Of a stretch of DNA of 49,560 nt, positions 110-42,220 are shown in pieces. The position numbers and the translations under genes were made by a program. The DNA is from a virus. Lineage: Duplodnaviria; Caudoviricetes. The stretch spans positions 1 to 49,560 of the IMG/VR virus record IMGVR_UViG_3300011338_000327. One strand, given 5' to 3'. Below the pieces are notes generated by a model. The model worked only from the letters and a program-made list of their open reading frames with translations. It was not told the DNA's origin and made no database searches. Position 1 is the stretch's first letter. The number at the start of each line of letters is the position of its first letter.

Positions 110-841
110 TTAACAAGCCCGTTGCGGATACTCATCCTGTTGGTTTGATTGATTAGCAACCCAACTAGCCTTGAAGCCTTGCCATCCACGGGAGACGCAT
201 TCTGTCAGAGCATCCTCCAATGTCCAGCCTGAAATTTTAACTTCTCTCTCAATGGCATCTAATGCTGTTTGGGTCAATGGTGCTTTCTTTGCTTTTCTTA
301 GTTTTAGAAAATCATTCCAGACTTGATCTGTAACCTCGAAAGGCTGGATTACGCTTTCAGTTTTCTTTTCTGTATTTGTAATAGAAGTAGAAGAAGAAGA
401 TGAAGAAGAAGACTGAAGAAGAAGTGTTGCGTTTTGGTTAATACCATTTGGCAAGCAATCCTCAACCACACTTGTAACGGTGGTTGAACCACCCTTAAGT
501 GCTTTACGCATTTCGGCAGACTTCTTACCACCTTCAGCACTTTTCCTAGCCCATTCGTTTTGTTTCAATATTTCTTGTTCAAGTCTTTCGTGAACCAACA
601 ATGAAGCATTTTCTGTGTGTGGTTGAAACATGGTTGCAACGGTGGTTGCAAGGGTGGTTGAAGCACCCTTACCAATCAATCGAGCAATTTGATCTGGATT
701 TGATGGAATACTTCCGTGCTGCCAACAATAGCAAAGCAACCTAATATATGCGCCTTCTTCTTCAAGTGTCATCAATGCGACTCTTTGAGATCCTAAATAA
801 TCTCCGGGGTAGAACTGAAATGCTGGACGTTTAATTTTCAT
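110..841 (-). CDS. Phage replication initiator, N-terminal DUF1376/YdaU-like wHTH domain
   Basis: Likely start MKIKRPAFQFYPGDYL...MTLEEEGAYIRLLCYCW (DUF1376-like); Ser-rich linker; C-terminal WNDFLKLRKAKKAPLT...RGWQGFK typical of phage replisome organisers. Confidence 0.8.
   Translation of the reverse strand: MKIKRPAFQFYPGDYLGSQRVALMTLEEEGAYIRLLCYCWQHGSIPSNPDQIARLIGKGASTTLATTVATMFQPHTENASLLVHERLEQEILKQNEWARKSAEGGKKSAEMRKALKGGSTTVTSVVEDCLPNGINQNATLLLQSSSSSSSSTSITNTEKKTESVIQPFEVTDQVWNDFLKLRKAKKAPLTQTALDAIEREVKISGWTLEDALTECVSRGWQGFKASWVANQSNQQDEYPQRAC
476..670. repeat. Iteron-like TGGTTG(C/A)A repeats inside the initiator gene (candidate origin)
   Basis: TGGTTG at 481, 620, 631, 643, 655 (last four spaced 11/12/12 bp); GGTGGTTGAA(C/G)CACCCTTA occurs twice. 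Confidence 0.5.
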
Positions 842-851
842 AGTTTGATAT

Positions 852-949
852 AGAAAAGCCTCGGCGGAAGTCAAACTCCTATACCGAAAGGCACAGGCAT
901 CCGCCAAGGCAAATTGTTTTTTGTGTTTTACATCGGTTTGAAACGATGC
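852..949 (-). promoter_or_regulatory. Structured 5' leader/attenuator of the replication initiator
   Basis: Hairpin GCAUCG-UUUCAAAC-CGAUGU, then long hairpin GCCUUGGCGGA...UCCGCCGAGGC followed by UUUUCU; loop UCAAAC is complementary to GUUUGA in the second hairpin. Confidence 0.6.
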
Positions 950-969
950 GCTTCAAATGAAGCTACACT

Positions 970-5788: not shown

Positions 5789-5824
5789 TTTCACCGAACT
5801 TTACTGCGAACTTTTCACCGAACT
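5789..5824. repeat. Three tandem 12-bp units (TTTCACCGAACT/TTACTGCGAACT/TTTCACCGAACT)
   Basis: Direct reading; lies immediately upstream of the -35 box. Confidence 0.7.
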
Positions 5825-6503
5825 AAAAATGTTTTTGAGTCCACAATAGTCTTGCGTTTTCAATGTCCATCGTTGGCTTACCAATCCGCAAGTTTACTGC
5901 GTTGTGGAGGTCAATACCCCATGTGAAAAACTCTTTCCAATCTGGAGGATTTTCGGAAATCCATTCATCGAGATGTTCTTTGCACGGACATCCATCAAAT
6001 GGCAACGATTCCCTCCACTCATTGAACCACCCCGTGGAATTTTTACCGCGATGGCGAACACCATAAAGATGCAACTCAGCCCAAAATCGAGGGCCATAAA
6101 CTAGGATTGACGGCACTTCATGGAATGACTTTTCCTCTACTTCGTCACCTGCTCGTTGAACCCAGTCGTTGTGTGCCTCCCAATCAATCGACATTGCCTC
6201 ACAAACGATCTTTTCTACTTGGTTGGCTATTTCATGCTGTTTGTGATATGGGGCATCTGGATGATTTCCGGGTTCAAGTATCCCCGGATTTGCAATGTCA
6301 AACGATGACACTTCATCCTATCGGATTCCAGCTTTGCGGCATAACCATGCCTCACCCATTTCGTGTAGGTTTACGAGAAACTCGCCATCTGGATTACCGT
6401 ACTCAGCAACAGAGCATTTCAACTCGCCGTTAGGCAACCATTCCCAGTCGCCAGTAGTCACATATCGCATGGATACTGGATCAACAGACTTTAACGTAAT
6501 CAT
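5823..6503 (-). CDS. HExxE-motif domain fused to an Erv1/Alr-like sulfhydryl oxidase domain; interrupted by one in-frame TAG at 6318-6320
   Basis: ORFs 6318-6503 and 5823-6311 share one frame (...GGA ATC CGA TAG GAT GAA GTG...); C-terminal YGPRFWAELH...GCPCKEHL...LHNAVNLRIGKP matches the Erv/Alr pattern. Confidence 0.65.
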
Positions 6504-8071: not shown

Positions 8072-11000
8072 TTATTTGTCTTCTTGTTTTTGTTCAACTT
8101 GTTTTGGCAAATCTCCTTCAACTGGTTTATCGTTTTTATCAAGAATCTTGATTAGATTTTCGTCGAAAACAACATAGTTGTATGTGTTTTTTTGTTGCTC
8201 TTTTTCAAGTGTAGCGAGTCTATTTTGTTCGTCTTTTAGAATTTTTGAAAGAATTGCGTTTGACGGATTAGAATCTAAATCGCGTTGAGCTATTCTTACG
8301 CGAGCTTTTGCTTCTTCTAAAGTTTTAGGATTTAAACGCGATGTTCCGTCAAGGTAACGAATGCCGGGAATGCCTGCTGCAAGCAATGCTTCGGATGCTG
8401 TTTTAGGATTACCACTTGCAATTGTATTGTAAATTTGTGATCCGTTGCTTTTTTTTGTAACACCAAGATAATCTGGAGTTATTTCTGAAGCAAATAATTC
8501 CTCCAAAATAGGATCGCCTTTAGCAGCATATTTAGCCAATGCTTTCTGCACTTTCTCACTCTGCTCACTCAAAGGTTTGTCCCAATCAAGCAAGTCTTCG
8601 TCTTTTACGTCAAGATCAACTTTGTAGAGGTTGCCTTGTTCAAATGTGATTTCTTTTTTGGATTTAACTTGGCTCAACGCATCATTAAACTTTTTAGCGT
8701 ATTCAAGTCCACCTTGTTCAACAGTATATGGCTCACCTTTTTCAGAGTCTTTTTGTAAAGTTTTACCAATCTGTTTTGCTTTATTTATTCCTTGATGATA
8801 AACTAATGAAATCGCATGACGGATTGGGTTTTTGTAATCGTCGCTTCGTAGTGACATTCCTTTCCAATCGTATATTCCGGGAGAATTCCAATCGGTTAGC
8901 TTCTCTTTGTAATCTTGAGCAACTTTTCTAGCTTGAGCAAAATACAAACCCCATCCATATGCTTGCGCTCCTTCACCAGTTCCGATTTTCTCCAACTTGA
9001 ACTTGTCTACGTCAAATGGAGTGCCATGATACGCTGGCAGGAAGTTAATTAACCCTGCGGAGCTAACAAGAGCGTTGCTATATGGCTTAATAACTGCGTC
9101 AGTATCAGGTTTTGCACTTGTTTCAATATCAGCGGGTTTGATGGTGTCAGCATCCATCTTCGGAGAAATTTCAGTTTTTTCTCGAATAGCAGGCTCCATC
9201 TCCACCATGTTGCTGTGTAGAACGCCTCTATCAGTATTGAACGTGTCTTCCTCGCTGGTTGCCTCTTTAAGTTGTCCAGATGCCTCGGCAATACGATATG
9301 CCTCCTCACGATCTACAACACGCCCTGTGTCTGTTTTAAAACCATAGTAGCGCGATTCACGATCAGTCTGTTCATCAGGAGCATTGGGATTTGCTGCCAT
9401 GTGACTTACACCTTCACGAACTTCGCCAGTGCGAGGATCGGTGTAGGTCGCGGCAACGATGCGTTCCTCTTCGGCTGGACGCTCTGGCATGAATTGAACG
9501 CCTTTTTGTGCTGGAGGATTGTACCCAAATTCTGACAATGAATTACCTTCAGTAAACAAATGCGATGCTGGAACAGATTTTGAAAGTATTTTATACTCTC
9601 CGTTCAATGCACTTTCGCCATGATCTACAGCATAAGAACGAGAAGGCGTAACCCAATCACCAGCATTGATTGCAGTAATTTGTTGTGGTCTTTCTGACAA
9701 CGCTTCATCTAATTGTTTTTTGAAATCTTCAGACCAAGGGTTTAATTTAGCTAGTTTTTCAAATTTTGAAATTCTATCTTCAATTTCCTTAGCTTTTACT
9801 GGATCAACTTCACCAAGATATTTCGGAACAGCACGATAAACTTTTACTTTTGCATTAGCTTTTCCTTTTGCAGATCGGATTGCATACAATGATTCTGCAT
9901 CAGATTTTGGTTCTCCAGAACCATAATATTGTAATGCTTTATCAAATGAAAGTGTGTAAAAATCATCAGGGTAAATTCCTTTTGTAACTTCATTGAATGG
10001 AGAACCATTTTCTTGATCTGGAGATTTATGTGTTCCTCGATATGCGTAATCTTCTTCCCTTTCAGGCATGAAACTAATTCCAATGTTTTTTCTCTTATCA
10101 TTTTCCTGCCTTGGAGCTTCACCTTCCATGCGTTCTGGCATGAAGTTAGCTTTTGCAAACCCATAATTAACTGGCATTTTAGTTGCGTTTGGATTTTCAA
10201 GCAACTCTGCAATATGGTCAACACGCACGGACATAATTGTGCGGTTAGCATCTTTACCCCTTGGATCACCTTTTCTGCGTGGAATAGTTGTTCTGTCAAG
10301 GTTAGTATATTCACTTGCCTTGTCGTAAAGATTCAGAAGATCATTGAATATATTCTTCTTTTGCAACGCAATTTGCTTATCAGCATCAAGCCCAGTTTCA
10401 CCAGCTTCACCTCTTTGCCAGTTGTTTAAATACTTTGTGAAATCATCAAAAGTGCGTTCAAGGTTGTTATCCCAGTAACGTAAACGCCCCGGCATACGCT
10501 CATTCCACAAGCGCATTTTATCAAAGATTCTTCCAACTGAAATTGTTGTAACAAGAAAGTTTCCAGCTTTTGACAAGTGCATTCCGATTGGAACAAGATC
10601 ATACATTTTTGGTGAAAATGCTTGATACTTTCCGTTGTCATTCATAACCGCTGCATAATCGACAATGAAACGTGATCCATCACCGCGAGCAATGGCTTCG
10701 TTCATTTTCAGCATATTTTCCTTCAGAGTCTTTGGAATAAGACTTTCAGGCATATCTTTGATTGCTTGAATCTGTGCTGGAGTAAATGTTCCGCGATACG
10801 TTTCTGAATCCTCTGAAACTGCTTCAAATCGATTAGGAGTTCCATAATCGTCAGTATCCAATGATTCCGTGATTAGTTTTCTTCTATCTGCCGCAAGTTT
10901 TTTTGCATCTTTTGCCTTATACATTATGGGTGTTACCCCATCTGGCTCCATTGCTAAATCACGCGAAACAACGAGAGTTCCACCTTCGGGAACTTGCAAT

Positions 11001-14000
11001 CCTTGCGCTTCAACTGGAATGTCACCATATCCAGAAAGTTTTTTAAATCCACCATCGGTATTCTGAAATGTTCCTTCCAGTGGATTAGGCGTTGTGACTG
11101 GCATTGATTCGCCAATCTGATTTCCGTCTTTATCAAATACTTTTAATTTAAATTCTGTTTTGAATAACGGAGAGTCTTTTCCAAATCGTTCAATCAACGC
11201 AGAATTTTTCATCATCTGCGCTTTGCTTATCTTCGGCATCTGCGGAGCTTCCACAGGAGGCGAAATTTCGCCATTTAAGGCAACAATCTGGCGCATTGCG
11301 TCTCTTGCTGCCGCCATGGCCTCTGGCGGGAATTCTGCGCGTGTATTTGACGCTGTTACAATGTCGCCACTTCCACCAAGACCGTAAAAACGATTGATTG
11401 TACGATCAAGGAGATTTTTCTTTGCTTTGATCCTTGCCCTATCCCACATAGCAAGAGTTGCGGAATCTAAATCTTTAGCAAGGTGTCTGCTTGTAATTTC
11501 ACCAAGCAAATCTGACATAACTTCATTTTTCATGTAGTCAGCAACTTTGTTTTCATCTAACTGACCACGGGATTCATCCCAAAGTTTGTTTAGCTTTGCA
11601 AATGCCTCTTTTCCTTCTGGGTCTAAATGGCGAAGGTATCCATCATTGAAAAGCTCAGTAAGTTTTGCTTTTGAGAAAATACCGGGAGTTGTTGCTTTAA
11701 TGTTTCCAGCAGCATCGCGGATGTCATTTTGGAAAAGCATTGACCTAACACCACTAAGCGCATCTTGGAATTCTGGAACAACACCCATGAAGTGGCCTGT
11801 TTCGTGAGCCAATGCCTCAATTGGAGTTTCACCAAACAATTTGATTCGTTCACGGATTGAATCTGCATTCAGAACAATCGATGGTTTCCTTCTATCAAAT
11901 ACAACGCCTTCTTGCGCTGGATTTGAATAAAAACCAGCCTGTGCTGCTATTTGAGCTAGATCAGCATCAGGAACATTGCTATGCGCTGGATTATTACGCA
12001 GTTTTTGATAAATTTGATCTGTGGAAAGAATGTTAAATCCAACATTGTTCTGACCGCTTTTAAGAACACCATTGGTGATGTCTTGAAGGTTAGCGTATGT
12101 TTTAAGAAACTCCCTGCCAAATTCATTGCGCGTTTGAACATTTGCGCGTTTTGTTGCGTCAAGTTGCCTTTTTTGTAAATCAAGATTTTCTTGCGCAGCT
12201 TTTATTGCTTCAGATTTATTTGATGCGATTGCTTCATTTAATGCAGTTTGACTTTCGTCAAGTTTGCTTTGTCTAAATGCAATTGCATTATCAAAATCAG
12301 AAATTTGATCGATATTAGCTTGCGTTTCTGGATCTGCTTCTTGATACCTTCTGCGTATTCTTGAATCATCAGAAATTCGTTCACGTTGTGCAATAACGGG
12401 ATCAACTCCCATGAACTTACCTTTAATGTGCTGTAATGCGCGACCACCAAGGGTAATCGCAAGTCCATCTGAAAGCATTTGCTTCATTTCTTCAGGTGAA
12501 GCGGATTCTAGCGCACCAGTGGCAAGGGCAAGTGTTGTTCCGTGGATTCCAGTCTTTGCGTATTCAACAGAATTTGAAAGGATGTTATCAATTGTCTTTC
12601 CACCACGAGAAGGAAGTTTTGCTTTTAATGCAGAACCTTCAGCAGATTGACCAAGGGTTTCAAATGTTTTACCCAATGGTGCTACTTTTCTTGCTTCTGC
12701 CACTTCTTTTACAAGCGTAGGCACTTCAAGTCCAAACTTAATGCCTTTCAATGCAGATCTAGCTGCAACACCTCCAACAGCACCAGTCAAAATTCCAGCC
12801 AATGGATTTTCTGGAGACATTTGATACCCTGCAATACCTCCAATAGTTGGAGATGCTATTTTACCTAAAACTCCAGTTGTTTTTTCAGCGATTGGTTTAA
12901 ATCTCTGAATAACCTCTTCAATTTTTTCTGCACCTTTTGCAACGCTTGTTGCTCTTTCAGTGCGTCTTTTAAGCATCTCATCAAGTTTTGATTTCTGTAA
13001 TACTTGAGCAGCTTTATTGATTTCAGCAATTTCATCAGCAGATTTGCCAATGTATTTAAGACCTTGAGCGATGTTTTTAGCACCTTTGTATCCAAGGCTA
13101 ACCGCCCCCATTGTTCCCATGCCTACCTCACCGGGAAGCAAAAATTCACCAGCAATCCTTACACGGGCATTTTCTTCTGGAAGCTCAGACTCCATTTCAG
13201 ATGTAAGTTTGTCAACGATACCGCGAGCCATTTCGTCTTGTTGAGCTTTTGCCTGTTCAACGCTTACATTTGTTCTTGCAGCCAACTCTTCAGGCGATTC
13301 CATCTGAGATTTGGAAATATACGTCAAAGCATCTTTTGCAAGAGGACTATCAAGCAATCTTCCGTAAATAGTAGGATGTTCACGGAAATATTCAGCGTGA
13401 GCTTGATCTACAATCCTACGCCCCTTCCAGCGTTCAAAACGATCCTCTGGATTGACCAACCCCATCTTTTCACCAACAGCATCAGCCCAACCAAATCCAC
13501 CTTCTTTAGCTTTTTCACCCATCCAAATAACATCTTCAGGTATTTCAAAGGCTGGAGCCATGAAAGAATAAAATGATCCTTTGGCTTTTTGAAGATTCTT
13601 TGCTGCTTCTTCATCACTGACTGTCATGTCAGTTGCTTTTACAACATCTCTACCAAGTTCAGCGGCTCCAAGACCAACCTTTACTGGTATTTTAGAAACT
13701 CCTTTGATGACATCTACAGCGTCACCACCAAGGTTGTACCAATCTTCCCATGAAGACGGAATAGATGGCATTTTTGACTTCTCAACGTCAAAGATACGCC
13801 TTGCTTGAGCGTCATCCAGCGGAATATCTTTACGAGCTTGAGCTACCTTATATTGCTCGTCATCACTTAATGAGTTGAATAAACTTTTGTCTTCATCATC
13901 AAGTTCATTTGATCTCTTTTGTGAGATAACATTAAGAAAAATGTCTCCGCTTGTCTTTTCAGCAGCAGTTGGAACTGGCTCAAGTGCTTTTTCAGCAACG

Positions 14001-14173
14001 TCAAAGAAATCTTCTTGAGGTTGTTCAGTTTCAGTAAAAAGCTCAGGCTTTTGATCTAGTTCTTGTGTTACTTCTTGCGTAACTTCATCAAGAATGCTTT
14101 TTGGCTTTTCTTCTTGAGGTTGTTGAGATAGTTCGGACTCTACTTCAGCCTTGATTTCATCAAGAATTGCCAT
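8072..14173 (-). CDS. Giant polyvalent internal virion/ejection protein with zincin motif and C-terminal ART-like domains
   Basis: 2033 aa; ALAHETGH (HExxH); AYHGTPFDVDKF...IGTGEGAQAYGWGLYF and VYRAVPK...GDWVT domains typical of phage polyvalent proteins; last gene of the ejection cluster. Confidence 0.75.
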   Translation of the reverse strand: MAILDEIKAEVESELSQQPQEEKPKSILDEVTQEVTQELDQKPELFTETEQPQEDFFDVAEKALEPVPTAAEKTSGDIFLNVISQKRSNELDDEDKSLFNSLSDDEQYKVAQARKDIPLDDAQARRIFDVEKSKMPSIPSSWEDWYNLGGDAVDVIKGVSKIPVKVGLGAAELGRDVVKATDMTVSDEEAAKNLQKAKGSFYSFMAPAFEIPEDVIWMGEKAKEGGFGWADAVGEKMGLVNPEDRFERWKGRRIVDQAHAEYFREHPTIYGRLLDSPLAKDALTYISKSQMESPEELAARTNVSVEQAKAQQDEMARGIVDKLTSEMESELPEENARVRIAGEFLLPGEVGMGTMGAVSLGYKGAKNIAQGLKYIGKSADEIAEINKAAQVLQKSKLDEMLKRRTERATSVAKGAEKIEEVIQRFKPIAEKTTGVLGKIASPTIGGIAGYQMSPENPLAGILTGAVGGVAARSALKGIKFGLEVPTLVKEVAEARKVAPLGKTFETLGQSAEGSALKAKLPSRGGKTIDNILSNSVEYAKTGIHGTTLALATGALESASPEEMKQMLSDGLAITLGGRALQHIKGKFMGVDPVIAQRERISDDSRIRRRYQEADPETQANIDQISDFDNAIAFRQSKLDESQTALNEAIASNKSEAIKAAQENLDLQKRQLDATKRANVQTRNEFGREFLKTYANLQDITNGVLKSGQNNVGFNILSTDQIYQKLRNNPAHSNVPDADLAQIAAQAGFYSNPAQEGVVFDRRKPSIVLNADSIRERIKLFGETPIEALAHETGHFMGVVPEFQDALSGVRSMLFQNDIRDAAGNIKATTPGIFSKAKLTELFNDGYLRHLDPEGKEAFAKLNKLWDESRGQLDENKVADYMKNEVMSDLLGEITSRHLAKDLDSATLAMWDRARIKAKKNLLDRTINRFYGLGGSGDIVTASNTRAEFPPEAMAAARDAMRQIVALNGEISPPVEAPQMPKISKAQMMKNSALIERFGKDSPLFKTEFKLKVFDKDGNQIGESMPVTTPNPLEGTFQNTDGGFKKLSGYGDIPVEAQGLQVPEGGTLVVSRDLAMEPDGVTPIMYKAKDAKKLAADRRKLITESLDTDDYGTPNRFEAVSEDSETYRGTFTPAQIQAIKDMPESLIPKTLKENMLKMNEAIARGDGSRFIVDYAAVMNDNGKYQAFSPKMYDLVPIGMHLSKAGNFLVTTISVGRIFDKMRLWNERMPGRLRYWDNNLERTFDDFTKYLNNWQRGEAGETGLDADKQIALQKKNIFNDLLNLYDKASEYTNLDRTTIPRRKGDPRGKDANRTIMSVRVDHIAELLENPNATKMPVNYGFAKANFMPERMEGEAPRQENDKRKNIGISFMPEREEDYAYRGTHKSPDQENGSPFNEVTKGIYPDDFYTLSFDKALQYYGSGEPKSDAESLYAIRSAKGKANAKVKVYRAVPKYLGEVDPVKAKEIEDRISKFEKLAKLNPWSEDFKKQLDEALSERPQQITAINAGDWVTPSRSYAVDHGESALNGEYKILSKSVPASHLFTEGNSLSEFGYNPPAQKGVQFMPERPAEEERIVAATYTDPRTGEVREGVSHMAANPNAPDEQTDRESRYYGFKTDTGRVVDREEAYRIAEASGQLKEATSEEDTFNTDRGVLHSNMVEMEPAIREKTEISPKMDADTIKPADIETSAKPDTDAVIKPYSNALVSSAGLINFLPAYHGTPFDVDKFKLEKIGTGEGAQAYGWGLYFAQARKVAQDYKEKLTDWNSPGIYDWKGMSLRSDDYKNPIRHAISLVYHQGINKAKQIGKTLQKDSEKGEPYTVEQGGLEYAKKFNDALSQVKSKKEITFEQGNLYKVDLDVKDEDLLDWDKPLSEQSEKVQKALAKYAAKGDPILEELFASEITPDYLGVTKKSNGSQIYNTIASGNPKTASEALLAAGIPGIRYLDGTSRLNPKTLEEAKARVRIAQRDLDSNPSNAILSKILKDEQNRLATLEKEQQKNTYNYVVFDENLIKILDKNDKPVEGDLPKQVEQKQEDK

Positions 14174-20828: not shown

Positions 20829-22940
20829 TTAACAAGGATTCTGTATGCGATATTGGTTTGCTGCCGCTGCTGCCGCTTGTTCAGCTAAGATTCCAGCTTG
20901 CTCTTCGGCGTGAGTGAAAGAAACACTTGACAAGAATGAAGCTGATGCAGTAGCAGAAATTGATGGTCTTACTGAAGGCAATGAACATGGCAATGTGACC
21001 GTTCTAAACACTTTTGCATACCATGATTTTTGATCAGTGCTAGGAGCCTCGTATGGATTTGGTAAAAGCTCCAAAGTCAATGTTGATCCGTCTTGAGCAA
21101 GCACACACGATTGTTTTTCATCTGATTGCGGGACGCCAGTTGACCTTTCGCTCCATGGGTCTTGGAACATACGAATTGTCTCAAGACCAAACTCACCGCA
21201 CCATTCAACAAGCATTGAAAACCCTTTATCAATGTCGGTTGTGAGCTTTGATTCACACGTTAATGATGCCGTATTTCGTGTTGTTGATTCAGTAATCAAA
21301 CGACGATATTGCGTGTTAAGAAACCCTAATTTTTCAATCTCTGGAGCAAATGGCGTGTTCTCCCATTGATAATTTTCAGTTACAGCAAGAAGCCTTGTGT
21401 TGAGGATTGATTGATATTGGCCTTTAGACCCCCTGTAGGACGCTTTAACGTCAACTGTGCCGCCAATCTCACAACATTCAAGCTCTCCATATACAAACTG
21501 CTTGTAATCCATTCCATCACCCAAAAGTGCAGTTTCAACTTGTGCATAAATTCGATTGAATAGGTCAGTTGTTGTACCATCTGCATTAATGCTCAAATAT
21601 GAATCAACTCGATTTGGCATGAATGATTCCCAAAGAGAAATATATGAACCATCGTTTGTTGCAGAATAATCAACGCTAAAGTGAAAGCATCTTGGTTGAC
21701 CTCCAATAATTCCTGTAGTCCATTCTACGGGCCTTGTTCCAGTCCATACACCACACCATGCAGGTGTCCGTTGTTGGTTTATTTCTGATGCAATAGCCCA
21801 ATCCATAACCATTGTTGCTGAATTTAATGGCTCAAGGTATGGAATGCTGTATAAAAGATAATTTTCAAAAGATGTAGCACAAATGCCGGTTTGATCTCCA
21901 GCCATATATGCTTTTGCTCTAACCATTTCAACGTCCTTATAAAGAACCTGAGAAGATAAATATGCGTTTCCTGCAACGTCAGCAGAAACAAGTCCACCTT
22001 GAGAAAACCACCACATTTGACCTGCTTGAAACGAAATGGATTTACCAGCAATGCAACCTACATTTGGAAACAATATAGTTTGAAAGTTTACAGTAGTTCC
22101 CCACTGTGTTCTATCATAAATTCCACTTGCAAGTGCATATGTTGAACGATCCGTAAAAACATAAAGTTTTTGGTCGTTATTTTGTCCAACGTAATTAGCA
22201 AGTGCTGTTACAGGTCGAGTAAATGAAAAGTCTCCGCGACCAGTTCCTGATTCACGCTCTTTCCATGAAGTTGGATCTCCAAGATCAGATGCTAAAACAA
22301 TGTTTCCATTTGCAACCCATAAACGATTTCCAGAATATGCCATCCAAGTTCCAGTTGGAATAGATGACGATTGAATTCCTGTTTTATTGCTACCATCCCA
22401 ATAAACAGGTGCTGAAATTCCATCCTGAATGAATAAAACACGATGCGATGGAGTAATTGAAACATCACCACCAGTCGAAATGTTTGCTGATTGTGTTGCA
22501 AGCGTAAAAACGCATTGTTTTACGTTTGGATCAAGTGATACATTAGAAAGCTGGAATGGAACCCATGATTCAGGTTGAACAAGTGGAAATGGAGTCCAGT
22601 AAACTTTTCCATTCACAGCAAATACCATGTATGGAATTTCTACTTGCTCAACACCCTCTCCATTAACGTCAAAAATCTGCGGTGGATTAGTTCCATCGGC
22701 TGCTTTATATTGTTTGTTTGCTAGAAAAAGAATTCCACCTTGGAAATTTCCAGCAGGAAGTGACAATTTCATGGATTGTCCCGGCCTTGTTTGAACGATT
22801 CCACCTCGGAATTGAGTATTAACTGACCATTTAACTTGGTCGTCAGGCAATGCCCAAGGATTTCGCATGGAATTAACTCCACGCAACCACCCAGCGGAAG
22901 TTTTTTCTTGTCTTCCTGATGTAATTTGTGATGATTTCAT
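20829..22940 (-). CDS. Tail nozzle/stabilisation protein (P22 gp10/T7 gp12-like)
   Basis: 703 aa, beta-rich, NTQFRGGIVQTRPG N-terminus, YSGNRLWVA..ASDLGDP; position in the tail module. Confidence 0.65.
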   Translation of the reverse strand: MKSSQITSGRQEKTSAGWLRGVNSMRNPWALPDDQVKWSVNTQFRGGIVQTRPGQSMKLSLPAGNFQGGILFLANKQYKAADGTNPPQIFDVNGEGVEQVEIPYMVFAVNGKVYWTPFPLVQPESWVPFQLSNVSLDPNVKQCVFTLATQSANISTGGDVSITPSHRVLFIQDGISAPVYWDGSNKTGIQSSSIPTGTWMAYSGNRLWVANGNIVLASDLGDPTSWKERESGTGRGDFSFTRPVTALANYVGQNNDQKLYVFTDRSTYALASGIYDRTQWGTTVNFQTILFPNVGCIAGKSISFQAGQMWWFSQGGLVSADVAGNAYLSSQVLYKDVEMVRAKAYMAGDQTGICATSFENYLLYSIPYLEPLNSATMVMDWAIASEINQQRTPAWCGVWTGTRPVEWTTGIIGGQPRCFHFSVDYSATNDGSYISLWESFMPNRVDSYLSINADGTTTDLFNRIYAQVETALLGDGMDYKQFVYGELECCEIGGTVDVKASYRGSKGQYQSILNTRLLAVTENYQWENTPFAPEIEKLGFLNTQYRRLITESTTRNTASLTCESKLTTDIDKGFSMLVEWCGEFGLETIRMFQDPWSERSTGVPQSDEKQSCVLAQDGSTLTLELLPNPYEAPSTDQKSWYAKVFRTVTLPCSLPSVRPSISATASASFLSSVSFTHAEEQAGILAEQAAAAAANQYRIQNPC

Positions 22941-23542
22941 GCGTTAAATGCCTTATAATTTTCAAGGCGAGAAATCAAAGCGTTTCGATATTCTGGAATT
23001 AAAGCATTAGCTTTTGCTGCAATTGACATTTTAACTTTTGTTTCAATTGGAATTGTTCTTCCTTTTTTTGCATCAGAAATCTTTTTTTTATGTTCTTCGG
23101 AAAGCGTAATTCCTTTTTTAGCTAAAGAAATCTTTAATCCAATTTCAGGAGACCTTTTTTTTCCCTTTAATGAATTTCCGTTTTTTAAAATTGTTTCTCT
23201 TATTTTGCTTTTTGTTTTTTCAGACATTAATCTTCCAGATTGACCTTCTCCTCCATCTGTTAAATTTGTTAATCTTATTCCAGTTTGTCTAAAATTTTCA
23301 ATAATTAGTTTTTCAGCATTATTGCAATCGTATTCTGAATTAAACCAATTAACTATTTGCATTATTGGTTTTTGATTGCTTTTCAATAAAGATCCAATCC
23401 AATAACAACAATTAGATTTTCGTGTTTTATGTTTTGCTGTATAGATATGCTGAATAATCCTTCTTTTTGGATTATTGCTTTTTCCAACATACCTTATTTC
23501 ATTTGTTAAAGGATGTCTTAAAGTATAAATGCAATGGTGCAT
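22937..23542 (-). mobile_element. Free-standing GIY-YIG homing endonuclease with NUMOD3 repeats
   Basis: CIY...RYVGKS, NLTDGGEG, MSEKTKSKI/LSEEHKKKISDAKKG repeats; AT-rich; inserted between two tail genes. Confidence 0.85.
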
Positions 23543-39632: not shown

Positions 39633-40832
39633 TTACAGTCCAGTTTCGCAAGGCAAAGGATTGCCATCAAATGGGCAACGCTTGTAGACAATCGCACACA
39701 CGTTCTGTGGGCGAATTGGCTGGATAGCGCGTTGGATTTGATAGATATGCTGACCGAAGTCACCATACAAGTTACAATCATTGTCGCGGAAGTATGTCCA
39801 CTCCAACTCACCCATGGCAAGCTGAGGAGCAAAACGGAATGTTCCTTCACCAACGTATTGTTCAGGCACGAGGCGTTTGAACGCTTCGCCACCGATTACA
39901 AACATAACTTCGTAATCAGCAGCTACCCAAGCTGGGTTGCGGCGTTGAGCAAAACCATTTGTCACTGCAGTGCTGACGATTGGGTTGACAAGAACGAGAT
40001 TGCCACTGCCATCAAAACCAGTAGCGCGAAGTGGCTGTTGGTCGATACCAAAGGCGAAACCGCGATAGCCCATAAACTGATAACCAGAGATGGACTCATC
40101 ACCCAACTTGAACGAACCAGCGGTAAGATAGAGCAAGTCTTCTTTAACATCTGCATCGTTACGGAAGTTTTCGATCTGATCGGCAGAAGCGAGAACTTGG
40201 AAGAACTCACCATCTTTGGATGCAAAAGGCTCTGCAAGCATCTCTTCGCGGAGGAAAGTACCAATGCGATAGAGGGTCTTGAAGTTCATAGGCGCATCAG
40301 GTAGATGAGTGGCGAACTTGGTGTTGATTTGCTGCATATCACCCGTGAGGTTATTGCCAAACGAGTATGTGCTGTTGACAACGTATTTAATACCAGACTG
40401 AATGAGGTATTGATAACGGATGTCAGCGTTGATGATCTGAAGGATCGTTTTCTCAAGTGAAACTTGAGCTTGGAGGTAAGAACCTTTAAACGCCGTGCGA
40501 GCTTGCTTAACGCAAACACGAGGGCCAGCACCACGAAGAGTCTGGAGTTGGAACTGATACTCAGTCGAGCCAACAACATCAGGGGTTGCACCGATTCCGC
40601 AAAGGTTCAGATCGTTTTGGAACGTAGGAGAAGCGAGAGAAGCGGCAGGCACTGCCATTTCCTCAACAACGCTACGAACAACGTCCGATACGCTAGGAAG
40701 AGTTCCGCCATCAATCGAGTTGATGTAAGGAGATTTGCGAGCAAGCACACGACCGATTTGGCCGATGATGCGGTTTACGTCTTTAGAAGCGAAATTCTGA
40801 ATTGTCGCTAGTGGGATACATTCTTGAGCCAT
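39633..40832 (-). CDS. Major capsid protein
   Basis: 399 aa, downstream of portal and scaffold, own promoter and structured leader, hairpin after the stop. Confidence 0.75.
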   Translation of the reverse strand: MAQECIPLATIQNFASKDVNRIIGQIGRVLARKSPYINSIDGGTLPSVSDVVRSVVEEMAVPAASLASPTFQNDLNLCGIGATPDVVGSTEYQFQLQTLRGAGPRVCVKQARTAFKGSYLQAQVSLEKTILQIINADIRYQYLIQSGIKYVVNSTYSFGNNLTGDMQQINTKFATHLPDAPMNFKTLYRIGTFLREEMLAEPFASKDGEFFQVLASADQIENFRNDADVKEDLLYLTAGSFKLGDESISGYQFMGYRGFAFGIDQQPLRATGFDGSGNLVLVNPIVSTAVTNGFAQRRNPAWVAADYEVMFVIGGEAFKRLVPEQYVGEGTFRFAPQLAMGELEWTYFRDNDCNLYGDFGQHIYQIQRAIQPIRPQNVCAIVYKRCPFDGNPLPCETGL

Positions 40833-41050
40833 AATATTTGTTTTCTGATTTTGTTTTGTTTAGGTTTGTTCTGCTTGAACCGACCCTTTAGAAGATCTAT
40901 TGGGCGACATTCAAGTGCATAGAAATGCTTGCGCAATTCTACTGCTTGTTTCTTGTTTGTTCGCCCCGGCACGTTGGGCTTGTTGATACGGCCTGTTTGT
41001 GGATTTTGTGACTTCCACGGAGTCATAGGTATACGGAACCTACCTGCCGA
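40833..41050 (-). promoter_or_regulatory. Long structured 5' leader of the capsid gene
   Basis: At least four hairpins separated by CAA-rich linkers, one with a GCAA tetraloop, one forming a possible H-type pseudoknot; TTGACA at 41084-41089 upstream. Confidence 0.6.
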
Positions 41051-41101
41051 AGTGAATTCAGAACTGCGATATATTAACGAATATGTCAACAAAAAACATT
41101 C

Positions 41102-41130
41102 CGTGACATAGAAAAAATAATTATGTCACG
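41102..41130. promoter_or_regulatory. Perfect 9-bp inverted repeat CGTGACATA-N11-TATGTCACG (operator-like)
   Basis: Direct reading; lies between divergent -35 boxes. Confidence 0.6.
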
Positions 41131-41143
41131 ACGAAAAAAAGAT

Positions 41144-41172
41144 TTGACCTGTTAAAAAAACAATGCAATATT
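41144..41172 (+). promoter_or_regulatory. Putative rightward promoter TTGACC-17-AATATT with extended TG
   Basis: Good -35, weak -10, A-tract upstream; precedes the structured RNA. Confidence 0.4.
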
Positions 41173-41184
41173 TCTAACATCTTA

Positions 41185-41280
41185 CTTGAATTTTCACAGG
41201 ATTCAGGCGAAATAATTTTACTCTCCAGCAAAATAACCCGTCTCGATACTGTGAATATCAAGGCGGGTTTTTCCTTTTGT
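41185..41280 (+). terminator. Hairpin plus intrinsic terminator with fully complementary 7-nt loops
   Basis: CUUGAAUU-[UUCACAG]-GAUUCAGG and AACCCGUCU.GAUA-[CUGUGAA]-UAUC.AGGCGGGUU-UUUCCUUUU. Confidence 0.7.
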
Positions 41281-41284
41281 ATGA

Positions 41285-41615
41285 AGCCTAACGGCAGTTC
41301 CCAAAAGTAGCCCTAAAATAAGATGAGCGTAGCACGGCATGGTTCTATCCCATGACTGCGGAACAAACCTGAAAAGGACTCCCGTGTGAAGGAGAGGCGT
41401 TGGGAGGGGTAACAGACTACCAACTTAATAGCTTCTTCCGAAAGGAAGAGGTCTGCGAATCAAACTGGCTCTCACCGAAAGGTGTAAACTAAAGTAAGGC
41501 TAGGCAAAGGACGACCTCTGGCCGAGTGATTCATAAAAGCATACGAACGGCTCCATACGAGAAAGCATCGTGTATTTTTAGCAGTATCCCATTATGTGGG
41601 ATCTGCTATGCACCG
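41285..41615 (+). ncRNA. Candidate large structured non-coding RNA, family not recognised
   Basis: No useful ORF; nested helices and three GAAA tetraloops (CCU-GAAA-AGG, UCUUCC-GAAA-GGAAGA, CACC-GAAA-GGUG). Confidence 0.6.
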
Positions 41616-41644
41616 AACTCACCACCAAGTAAGCATTGTATAAC

Positions 41645-42220
41645 TTACAGCAAAGATGCCATTACTTCTGACTTAGGAATATCACATTTATCAATGTGAC
41701 GAACTTTATCACCGATAGCAGATAGTCTATCTTTTATGTTAAGAATATCTGATTCTATTTTTAACACATTATCTGATATGAATTCCTCTGAGATAAATTT
41801 GTGAATTGCAGCAGCGCAATTTTCTCTATTAGAATAAAAAAGAAAGCACGGACGACCATTTGTCATGTTCAGTTCACCTTGATACGGAATAGCGTCAGAT
41901 GGAGTGAATCCAAGATTAACGACATCGTAATCAGACATCCATCCACCACCGGCAGCGTGTAATGCTGACCATCTAGAGTAACGAGCGACAATTTGTGGAA
42001 AATAGTGCCGCAAGTTATCTGGAAGTGTATGCAATAACTTCCCTAGTTTTTGTATTAGTTTAGTGTGTAGATTAGATGCTGCTGCGTGAGACTTGTTAAG
42101 CATCACGCAATCCCAACCATTTTTCTCCCATGAGGTCTTCCACCAGTTTGCACGGGCAAATTGCTCTGCCTGTGGCAATGTCTGGATACTTTCATAGTAT
42201 GAGTAAACTTTAGTTTTCAT
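41645..42220 (-). CDS. DXD glycosyltransferase (GT32/Och1-like)
   Basis: WKTSWEKNGW, RWSALHAAGGGWMSDYDV. Confidence 0.65.
   Translation of the reverse strand: MKTKVYSYYESIQTLPQAEQFARANWWKTSWEKNGWDCVMLNKSHAAASNLHTKLIQKLGKLLHTLPDNLRHYFPQIVARYSRWSALHAAGGGWMSDYDVVNLGFTPSDAIPYQGELNMTNGRPCFLFYSNRENCAAAIHKFISEEFISDNVLKIESDILNIKDRLSAIGDKVRHIDKCDIPKSEVMASLL

Follow-up and report, generated by a model that had tools for sequence, protein, structure and literature searches.

Few large structured RNAs are found in phages, and a function is known for almost none of them. The RNAs closest in character to the one described here are GOLLD and ROOL, which are large, ornate and dispensable phage RNAs with pseudoknots (PMC12286853). 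The ColE1 primer, RNA II, is a long noncoding RNA with a host-type promoter and control through its 5' region (PMC4412123, PMC5043065), in which a run of rG in the transcript pairs with a run of dC in the template strand (PMC4412123), and R-loop origins, oriF and oriG, are present in T4 (PMC4412123, PMC5043065). The zipper-type attenuator cATT of plasmid pLS20, in whose long leader a stem-loop is complementary to a terminator further downstream, is the closest described switch (PMC13401043). Templating of the A-B-A' form is described for DRT2/DRT10-type systems (10.1101/2025.10.16.682844, 10.64898/2026.04.29.721553, PMC12039810), and the IS110 bridge RNA has an internal 8-9-nt segment that matches the bottom strand at the element's own end, and co-varies with it (PMC11208160). 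Finally, Type III antitoxins (ToxI, RCd22) and phage pseudo-ToxI are repeated RNA units that act in trans against host RNases.

The RNA gene described here is an undescribed RNA class of freshwater phages and adds four new pseudoknotted folds on one chassis. The window (the whole stretch of DNA that was analysed, 49,560 nucleotides) is a 49.6-kb virus record, about 78% complete, whose long genes lie on the minus strand. A sequence-only reading had singled out 41285-41615 as an ORF-free stretch encoding a multi-domain RNA of about 330 nt on the opposite strand. The stretch does lie in a gap, 40833-41644, between two minus-strand genes, and every helix strand quoted for it is present there. It makes up the core and 3' part of a larger predicted RNA gene, 41178-41638 (+), whose features are collected in Table 1. 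A promoter with a fixed 16-nt spacing places the start near 41178, so the noncoding RNA is predicted to measure about 455 nt and the earlier size was too small. Conservation stops at 41638, a few bases short of the stop codon of the convergent gene, and a scan of the window found no plus-strand terminator 3' of the RNA gene. No ORF is kept across the RNA, as indels of 1-2 nt occur throughout the alignment; a short leader peptide was also considered and dropped, its start codon and frame not being conserved. The neighbour on the other side has no Pfam or PHROG match, and its Atlas matches include Phage_capsid_3/_4 clusters, the family being present in 18-33% of members.

Table 1. Features of the predicted RNA gene and of its two neighbours (window positions)
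Feature	Position	Strand	Basis
Sigma70-type promoter; -35 at 41144-41149, 16-nt spacer, -10 at 41166-41171	41144..41171	+	promoter scan
Leader hairpin 1; loop 41193-41199 perfectly complementary to hairpin 2 loop	41185..41207	+	loop comparison
Leader hairpin 2 and U-run, terminator-like candidate attenuator; loop 41249-41255 kisses hairpin 1	41237..41278	+	pattern scan
Tetraloop-capped leader hairpin found with cores A, B and C	41277..41305	+	95% of cells paired over 9 pairs
Interchangeable core type A, multi-helix with pseudoknots	41322..41532	+	alignment, covariation
Start of shared 3' module: variable-register helix around pentaloop hairpin 41552-41560	41537..41575	+	alignment A3
Internal twin 9-mer, purine-rich, predicted guide-like segment	41558..41566	+	co-variation with terminal copy
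Long 3' hairpin between twin copies	41579..41611	+	10 pairs, 97% of cells paired
Terminal twin copy (9-mer part 41626-41634)	41626..41638	+	end of conservation
Neighbour, likely major capsid protein, transcribed away from RNA gene	39633..40832	-	Atlas feature matches 0.97-0.98
Neighbour, convergent 191-aa gene, no family match	41645..42220	-	Pfam, PHROG profiles searched

Homologues of the core were collected with pattern scans, in which the real matches numbered 20 of 21, 12 of 13, 21 of 24 and 17 of 17 in viral sequences and 31 of 35 in a metagenome scan. Pattern matches dropped as chance were L089, L105, L124, L126, L127, L157, L158, L183 and L184, then L230 and L255 from the leader scan, and also L210, L216, L217 and L221. 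One exact-pattern scan of GTDB genomes, sensitive only to close type-A homologues, returned 18 matches and none was real, so a host copy of another type is possible. The real matches collapse to 35 distinct cores including that of the window, all on phage or metagenome contigs. Alignment A3 holds 34 of them (L165 was left out as incomplete), with a mean identity of 81%, a lowest identity of 68% and about 16 effective sequences.

The resulting model of 60 pairs has 99.2% of its cells paired over the 34 homologues, the model being derived from the same alignment. Changes on both sides of a pair are seen at 15 of the 60 pairs, compared with 9.0 ± 1.7 in shuffles and at most 3 in slid controls. 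The best-supported pairings are 41457-62/41527-32, 41473-76/41481-84, 41498-501/41520-23, 41399-403/41420-24 and the 3' hairpin. Two of the 15 pairs belong to pseudoknots, 41325-28/41468-71 and 41393-97/41515-19, each with one compensatory change in a single clade, and a candidate third pairing, 41333-36/41383-86, is invariant. A 7-nt T-loop-like hairpin lies at 41338-41354, its loop replaced in 2 of the 34 homologues, and long unpaired stretches of the core never vary. An 8-pair helix, 41327-34/41604-11, is possible and invariant and was set aside, as no co-variation backs the pairing. Where only one side of a pair changes, the change is of the G-U type, and tetraloop variants stay within GNRA; this fixes the plus strand. 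Folding energy is unremarkable and slightly better on the minus strand, with z-scores of -1.5 (+) and -2.2 (-) for 41285-41615 and -2.8 (+) and -4.0 (-) for 41178-41635, so the case rests on comparison; the energy test suggested earlier neither exceeds chance nor picks the strand. On the comparative evidence, this is a structured RNA on the plus strand, as first proposed, and its structure is under strong purifying selection.

Much of the fold drawn by eye is borne out by the alignment, including GAAUCA/UGAUUC, CACC/GGUG, GGCU/GGCC, CAUGG/CCAUG, GUAG/CUGC, CCU-GNRA-AGG, the 3' hairpin and the variable GNRA stem. Three helices of that drawing do not hold: CCUAACG/CGUUGGG is compatible with only 11-33 of 34 homologues per pair, CAGACU/GGUCUG has one pair kept in just 2 of 34, and AUACGA/UCGUGU in the register given is kept in 2-27 of 34 per pair. 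GUUCC/GGAAC is compatible with 29-33 of 34 homologues, but its GUUCC strand sits in the covarying leader hairpin, while CUCC/GGAG is present but never varies and overlaps a covarying pseudoknot. The drawing lacked both covarying pseudoknots, the pairing GUUGG/CCAAC, the 100-nt kissing-loop leader and the twin 3' sequence.

Comparison with known RNAs supports the view that no described family is involved. Rfam gave nothing at gathering level in the window (three chance matches at E up to 10), no family on the RNA in 15 homologous loci and none for cores B, C and D in five loci at E up to 0.05. The covariance models of GOLLD, ROOL, OLE, raiA and HEARO do not match the RNA, and ARAGORN finds no tRNA or tmRNA in the window. 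Likewise, blastn of cores A, B and D against 50,697 phage records, blastn of A against plasmids and tblastn of the capsid protein against phages gave no match. No published description was found in the literature searched, which reaches few subscription journals. The supplement of Fremin et al. (PMC10690425) gave no match to five motifs in the 6 files searched; a fragment of the RNA may be among their candidates of at most 151 nt.

Several familiar classes were considered and rejected, in line with the first impression that no tRNA, tmRNA, RNase P or intron core is present. The tRNA, tmRNA and RNase P RNA assignments have no ARAGORN or Rfam match, the T-loop-like loop is replaceable and the 3' CCA is not conserved. 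A group I or group II intron is set aside for an intergenic RNA with its own promoter, no empty site among 39 leader loci and no Rfam intron match. Resemblances to tRNA/tmRNA, RNase P, group I, group II domain V, hammerhead and CsrA sites, judged by eye, were dropped because the positions they need vary in alignment A3.

The expression data are sparse. Run X1, a freshwater metatranscriptome, holds one strandless 171-nt contig over 41249-41369, with 2 differences and a depth of 4.9, which is weakly compatible with read-through past the leader and may be DNA. The same run has no contig over the B core of L012, uncovered stretches being uninformative.

The earlier proposal of a dedicated promoter is upheld at 30 of 30 type-A loci, where the promoter spacing and a CAT motif downstream are kept. 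The proposed gated terminator also gains ground as a prediction. Although the loops of the two leader hairpins are hypervariable, each of 30 distinct pairs (30 of 30) keeps 5-9 complementary nt, and the complementarity of a loop to its own partner averages 6.9 nt, against 3.2 nt across pairs, a value reached by 0 of 50,000 permutations. The hairpin 2 pattern occurs once in the window and is conserved upstream of cores A, B, C and D and of an HNH gene, and its U-run is weaker in 6 of 30 type-A loci. Four pairs of the tetraloop-capped leader hairpin change on both sides and the hairpin contains the top-ranked covarying column pair; a conventional hairpin 3' of the tetraloop was dropped in its favour. 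An X1 contig (depth 4.9) joins opposite strands at window 41200-41249, between the two complementary loops, and may be a template-switch artefact caused by loop pairing.

The pLS20 attenuator (PMC13401043) differs in having three segments, whereas the phage leader has two hairpins with hypervariable 7-nt loops and is predicted to gate an RNA gene, an HNH gene or an initiator; the likeness covers the leader only. Read by eye, 4 of the 5 phages inspected, that of the window among them, have a leader of similar design before their initiator gene. The leader of the O-like initiator at window 841-950 (-) consists of a small hairpin followed by a long terminator-like hairpin just before the ATG, and the loop of the small hairpin is complementary to a bulge in the terminator-like one. 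This design recurs with other loop sequences in G002, G006 and G007, and none was seen in the G003 stretch folded.

Judged from the compared loci, the cassette is modular, being built from a constant promoter and kissing-loop/terminator leader, an exchangeable core or HNH gene, and a homologous 3' module. The 41 matches to the leader hairpin comprise 17 with core A, 21 with core B, 1 with core C and 2 chance matches, and none of the 39 real leader loci lacks cargo. Core B (L014:1563-1978 (-) and 20 other loci) has covarying helices and one pseudoknot and is unrelated to A; core C is found at one locus, L251, and core D at L214, L222 and L223, in a distant 37-kb phage type. Model R1, built on the type-A core, detects none of the loci with cores B, C and D. 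Homology across the types does exist in the 3' modules, as D joins an A-type hairpin to a B-type motif and flanks, and the pentaloop motif of A recurs in B, C and D; the type-B locus L259 is without the module. L262 and L239 are two ends of one contig that carry core A and core B with an identical downstream flank, and they are probably two co-existing alleles joined during assembly. A formylglycine-generating-enzyme-like gene lies between the cassette and the capsid gene at L026:2992-3954 and L011:3186-3941.

The cassette is also optional. The best 80 of 158 capsid relatives were scored, and 5 carry core A, 14 core B, 2 an HNH gene and 54 nothing; the remaining 5 are too short to score, leaving the cassette in 21 of 75 and missing in 54 of 75. 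Its state differs even between phages at 96-97% capsid identity, and no phage gene tracks specifically with it in six genomes. Core A occurs as well in a second phage group, with a capsid about 25% identical. There it lies a long way from the capsid gene, at the turn that separates the late genes from dCMP-deaminase-like and helicase genes. These distributions bear on the suggestion that an RNA of the head module might serve in packaging or as a pRNA-like virion component. It does adjoin the likely capsid gene in the window's phage group; the majority of close relatives lack it, and the second group places it before nucleotide-metabolism and helicase genes. A phi29-type pRNA would be an essential, fixed part of packaging. 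Two distant phage groups with different genomic places argue that this is not a packaging RNA, a role that we consider hardly credible.

The 3' module carries a twin sequence, whose copies lie 61-68 nt apart in type A and 71-82 nt apart in types B, C and D. What the co-variation of the two copies preserves is identity, not complementarity. In type A, a copy agrees with its own partner at 6.6 of 8 positions, compared with 4.7 across pairs (16 distinct pairs; no permutation as high), and 11 hand-picked lineage representatives give 6.1 against 3.9, again reached by no permutation. Types B, C and D show the same independently, with 9.4 against 6.2 of 12 positions (16 pairs) and 5.0 against 2.9 in the distal 7 nt. 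These permutations correct only partly for kinship; on the tree, several separate clades each carry their own change in both copies, and the repeat columns rank each other highest in covariation. The twin has no pairing partner within the RNA, where its best complements lie at no fixed place. All distinct type-A loci whose flank is long enough (32 of 32) contain the 3' hairpin once, with no deletion or duplication of the module. In one clade, around L096:2262-2290 (-), the terminal copy doubles as the likely ribosome-binding site of the next gene, and the internal copy bears the same change.

One reading of such a pair of junctions is a ribozyme or self-processing RNA, whose core would cut or splice at two equivalent sites and free a 61-82-nt hairpin. 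The pseudoknotted core and its long invariant unpaired stretches suit it, as do junction sequences that are the same on either side of a fixed hairpin. The RNA has no guide for the twin sequence, though, one 3' module is served by four unrelated cores, Rfam returns no ribozyme or intron at E up to 10 (window) or 0.05 (B, C, D), and no cargo-free allele is seen, all 39 real leader loci being filled. Self-processing is thus unlikely in our judgement. Slightly less probable still is an RNA-only oligomer or cage like GOLLD and ROOL, with intermolecular long-range pairings and assembly driven by the 3' module. Such cages are likewise phage-borne, ornate and non-essential, and GOLLD joins a constant 3' to a variable 5' region while kissing loops form the cage bridges in ROOL (PMC12286853). 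At about 455 nt, the present RNA is shorter than those RNAs (659 and >800), matches neither family in Rfam, lies outside any tRNA island in a window with no tRNA and differs from both in its attenuator leader and twin 3' sequence, and a cage leaves the identity of the twin copies unexplained.

The twin might also be a by-product of recombination in a selfish homing cassette, where a free-standing HNH endonuclease would drive the exchange, with the RNA as partner or passenger. One HNH family, with a basic N-terminus and 58-61% identical, fills the slot alone at L011:2216-2743 (-) and L070:2880-3572 (-), or directly follows core B at L224:1744-2334 (+) and L263. Most RNA loci, however, have no adjacent HNH gene, the structure is under strong purifying selection, no module is duplicated or precisely deleted in the 32 type-A loci, and the terminal copy is missing from the 17 empty sites compared, so that homing seems improbable. 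Another HNH-like ORF lies 3' of core B in L239/L243.

Read from the internal to the terminal copy, transition mismatches between the two run G>A and U>C by 22:1 in type A and 14:1 in B/C/D, or 11:1 and 9:1 without a fixed loop-closing position. The cells are not independent, distinct kinds giving 4:1 and 6:1, and a cross-pair composition control, with a baseline ratio of 0.65-0.7, gives p about 0.09 per family, so the direction is only suggestive of G-U wobble being allowed against a DNA template strand. In addition, A/C at the base before the repeat co-varies with G/T (10:7 and 13:1 in the two families), which amounts to A-G versus G-A against the complementary strand. The internal copy is 83-96% purine, and in a model that sets the internal RNA copy against the complement of the terminal copy a mean of 8.5 of 9 positions pair. 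The mismatch direction and the preceding-base pattern would fit pairing of the internal copy with that complement. As group-2 loci are without the convergent gene, the template DNA is the only complementary strand present in every context.

This direction counts against a role as template, or decoy, for a host reverse transcriptase that makes repeats (DRT2/DRT10, telomerase-like), in which the A-B-A' arrangement would realign the cDNA and yield tandem hairpin DNA. The A-B-A' pattern of free sequence and required identity is the defining DRT10 signature (10.1101/2025.10.16.682844) and DRT2 RNA is pseudoknotted and 280 nt long (PMC12039810), so that the likeness to these template RNAs, and to telomerase RNA, lies in the repeat pattern and the pseudoknotted scaffold. 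Realignment would tolerate A>G and C>U when the terminal copy is read against the internal one; 2 of 38 transition cells change in this way, which is opposite to the prevailing direction. The repeat measures 9-13 nt rather than 2-4 nt and lies at the extreme 3' end with no scaffold beyond it, unlike DRT2, and the units, at 61-68 and 71-82 nt, do not keep to multiples of three. Furthermore, no reverse transcriptase is found nearby, and none exceeds the PF00078 cut-off in 10 of 10 cassette-bearing phage records, one weak match having two stops; the ORFs of six genomes and of the window contain one YxDD-like motif, in a protein that is not annotated as an RT. None of 4 read runs holds a junction running back over the 3' unit. 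Such templating is accordingly a poor candidate, a little behind homing. UG27 arrays need three proteins, unlike the phage RNA (10.64898/2026.09.22.753630).

A bottom-strand-type match, as in the IS110 bridge RNA, is present here. The match to the top strand is not specific, the upstream strand binding its own terminal copy no better than those of others (p 0.65, 0.38); no IS110 recombinase was found (PF01548, 0 of 5 genomes), and the cassette is not scattered like a transposon.

An internal segment of the RNA repeats the end of the RNA's own gene and may re-pair with the DNA there. Our leading but tentative reading, which we hold to be possible and well short of probable, is that the internal 9-mer pairs with the template strand at the end of its own gene and that the lasting hybrid primes or opens an auxiliary origin. 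Host sigma70 polymerase would begin the transcript near 41178, and pairing between the two loops would gate read-through of the leader terminator, as in the similar leader of the initiator gene. The core would then fold and keep the internal copy free. During transcription, while the polymerase moves past the terminal copy, the tethered internal copy may capture the template strand behind it over about 9 pairs, with tolerance for G-U wobble and for one purine-purine pair at one end. The persistent hybrid could be used by host RNase H and Pol I or by a phage helicase, and the exchangeable core would help the RNA to fold, as a scaffold, or offer a handle to various host proteins. Put more generally, and with the same reserve, this may be a new class of self-recognising phage RNA, in which a fixed chassis, made up of the kissing-loop attenuator and a 3' module with an internal guide for the DNA end of the gene, may tether any of several unrelated pseudoknotted payloads to the phage chromosome through a programmable 9-base RNA-DNA hybrid. 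No dedicated phage protein would be involved, and the hybrid might either prime replication or park the payload on the phage's own genome, which is again a possibility held below even chances.

The phage gene resembles that of ColE1 RNA II in having a promoter, at 30 of 30 loci, about 450 nt before the terminal copy, and no ORF. In RNA II a purine-rich stretch that pairs with the template strand seeds a persistent hybrid, and the same is predicted for the internal 9-mer. ColE1-type replicons are without an initiator of their own, and an O-like initiator is present here. Further differences from RNA II are that the phage kissing loops act in cis, the cassette is optional, the cores are exchangeable and the matching stretches lie 61-82 nt apart, and there is no sequence or Rfam similarity; the Rfam model of the antisense RNA I (RNAI) has no match in the window, and no consensus minus-strand promoter for an antisense RNA was seen inside the window's gene. 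The phages encode an O-like initiator (window and relatives) and a DnaB-like helicase, and most capsid relatives lack the cassette, so any origin here would be dispensable. GC skew turns near the RNA only where gene direction turns too (G001, G002), not in G003 or G007, and is not diagnostic of an origin at the RNA gene. Of the functions first suggested for the RNA, a replication primer gains most from the twin-sequence result.

The cores themselves complicate a priming role. There are four of them, unrelated and with many single-stranded bases that never vary, and they resemble surfaces for binding or catalysis more than the scaffold of a primer. An alternative nearly as likely as R-loop priming is that the RNA is a decoy for host proteins. 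As a trans-acting instrument of counter-defence or host takeover, the RNA would bait a host protein, with different cores aimed at different proteins. This deserves a place among the live possibilities, short of an expectation. On this reading, the twin copies would be equivalent sites at which a homodimeric RNase or RNA-binding protein binds or cleaves, in the manner of type III antitoxins. The abiF antitoxin RCd22, with two motif copies, acts in trans on a dimeric toxin (PMC12373285). Optional carriage and rapid exchange of the cassette suit a decoy, as do the contig with A and B at opposite ends and the lack of any reverse transcriptase, IS110 recombinase or other dedicated phage partner among those looked for. 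An abiF-motif RNA also adjoins the cassette in L012 and L013, 2 of the 15 loci scanned (compare PMC12373285, PMC3475682). The twin sequence nevertheless drifts between lineages instead of keeping one motif, and many copies are without GGA, the CsrA-type motif. There are only two copies and no array, and neither the directional wobble nor the A/C-G/T co-variation is predicted by protein binding. Compared with type III antitoxins, the phage RNA has no cognate toxin gene and no Rfam match, and what repeats is 9-13 nt, not a whole unit. The abiF-motif RNA of these two loci (L012:2951-2987 and L013:3099-3135; Rfam RF03085, 44.5 bits) has a U-run, is convergent with the cassette and has no adjacent abiF gene; it is a candidate orphan antitoxin.

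What separates these readings is the unusual constraint on the twin 9-mers, which are free in sequence and bound to be identical, and single and double mutants would tell recognition of DNA apart from binding of protein, from catalysis and from templating. Should the R-loop reading be true, the RNA would be a natural and apparently protein-independent case of RNA-guided DNA recognition, and no ColE1-like primer RNA would have been seen before it in tailed phages that have an initiator of their own. Otherwise, the cassette would still be a new family of candidate ribozymes or counter-defence decoys.

Elsewhere in the window, the likely capsid gene has a 5' leader, 40833-41090 (-), that is conserved, has a promoter to itself and appears to be a structured RNA of about 220 nt. 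Its core motif, 40966-40974, is found in 61 of 80 relatives and has no Rfam match, and the leader is a candidate autoregulatory element. A GIY-YIG/NUMOD3 homing endonuclease lies between virion genes at 22937-23542 (-), an Erv1/Alr-family oxidase is encoded at 5823-6311 (-), and a 2033-aa protein with ParB-like and weak ADP-ribosyltransferase matches is encoded at 8072-14173 (-).
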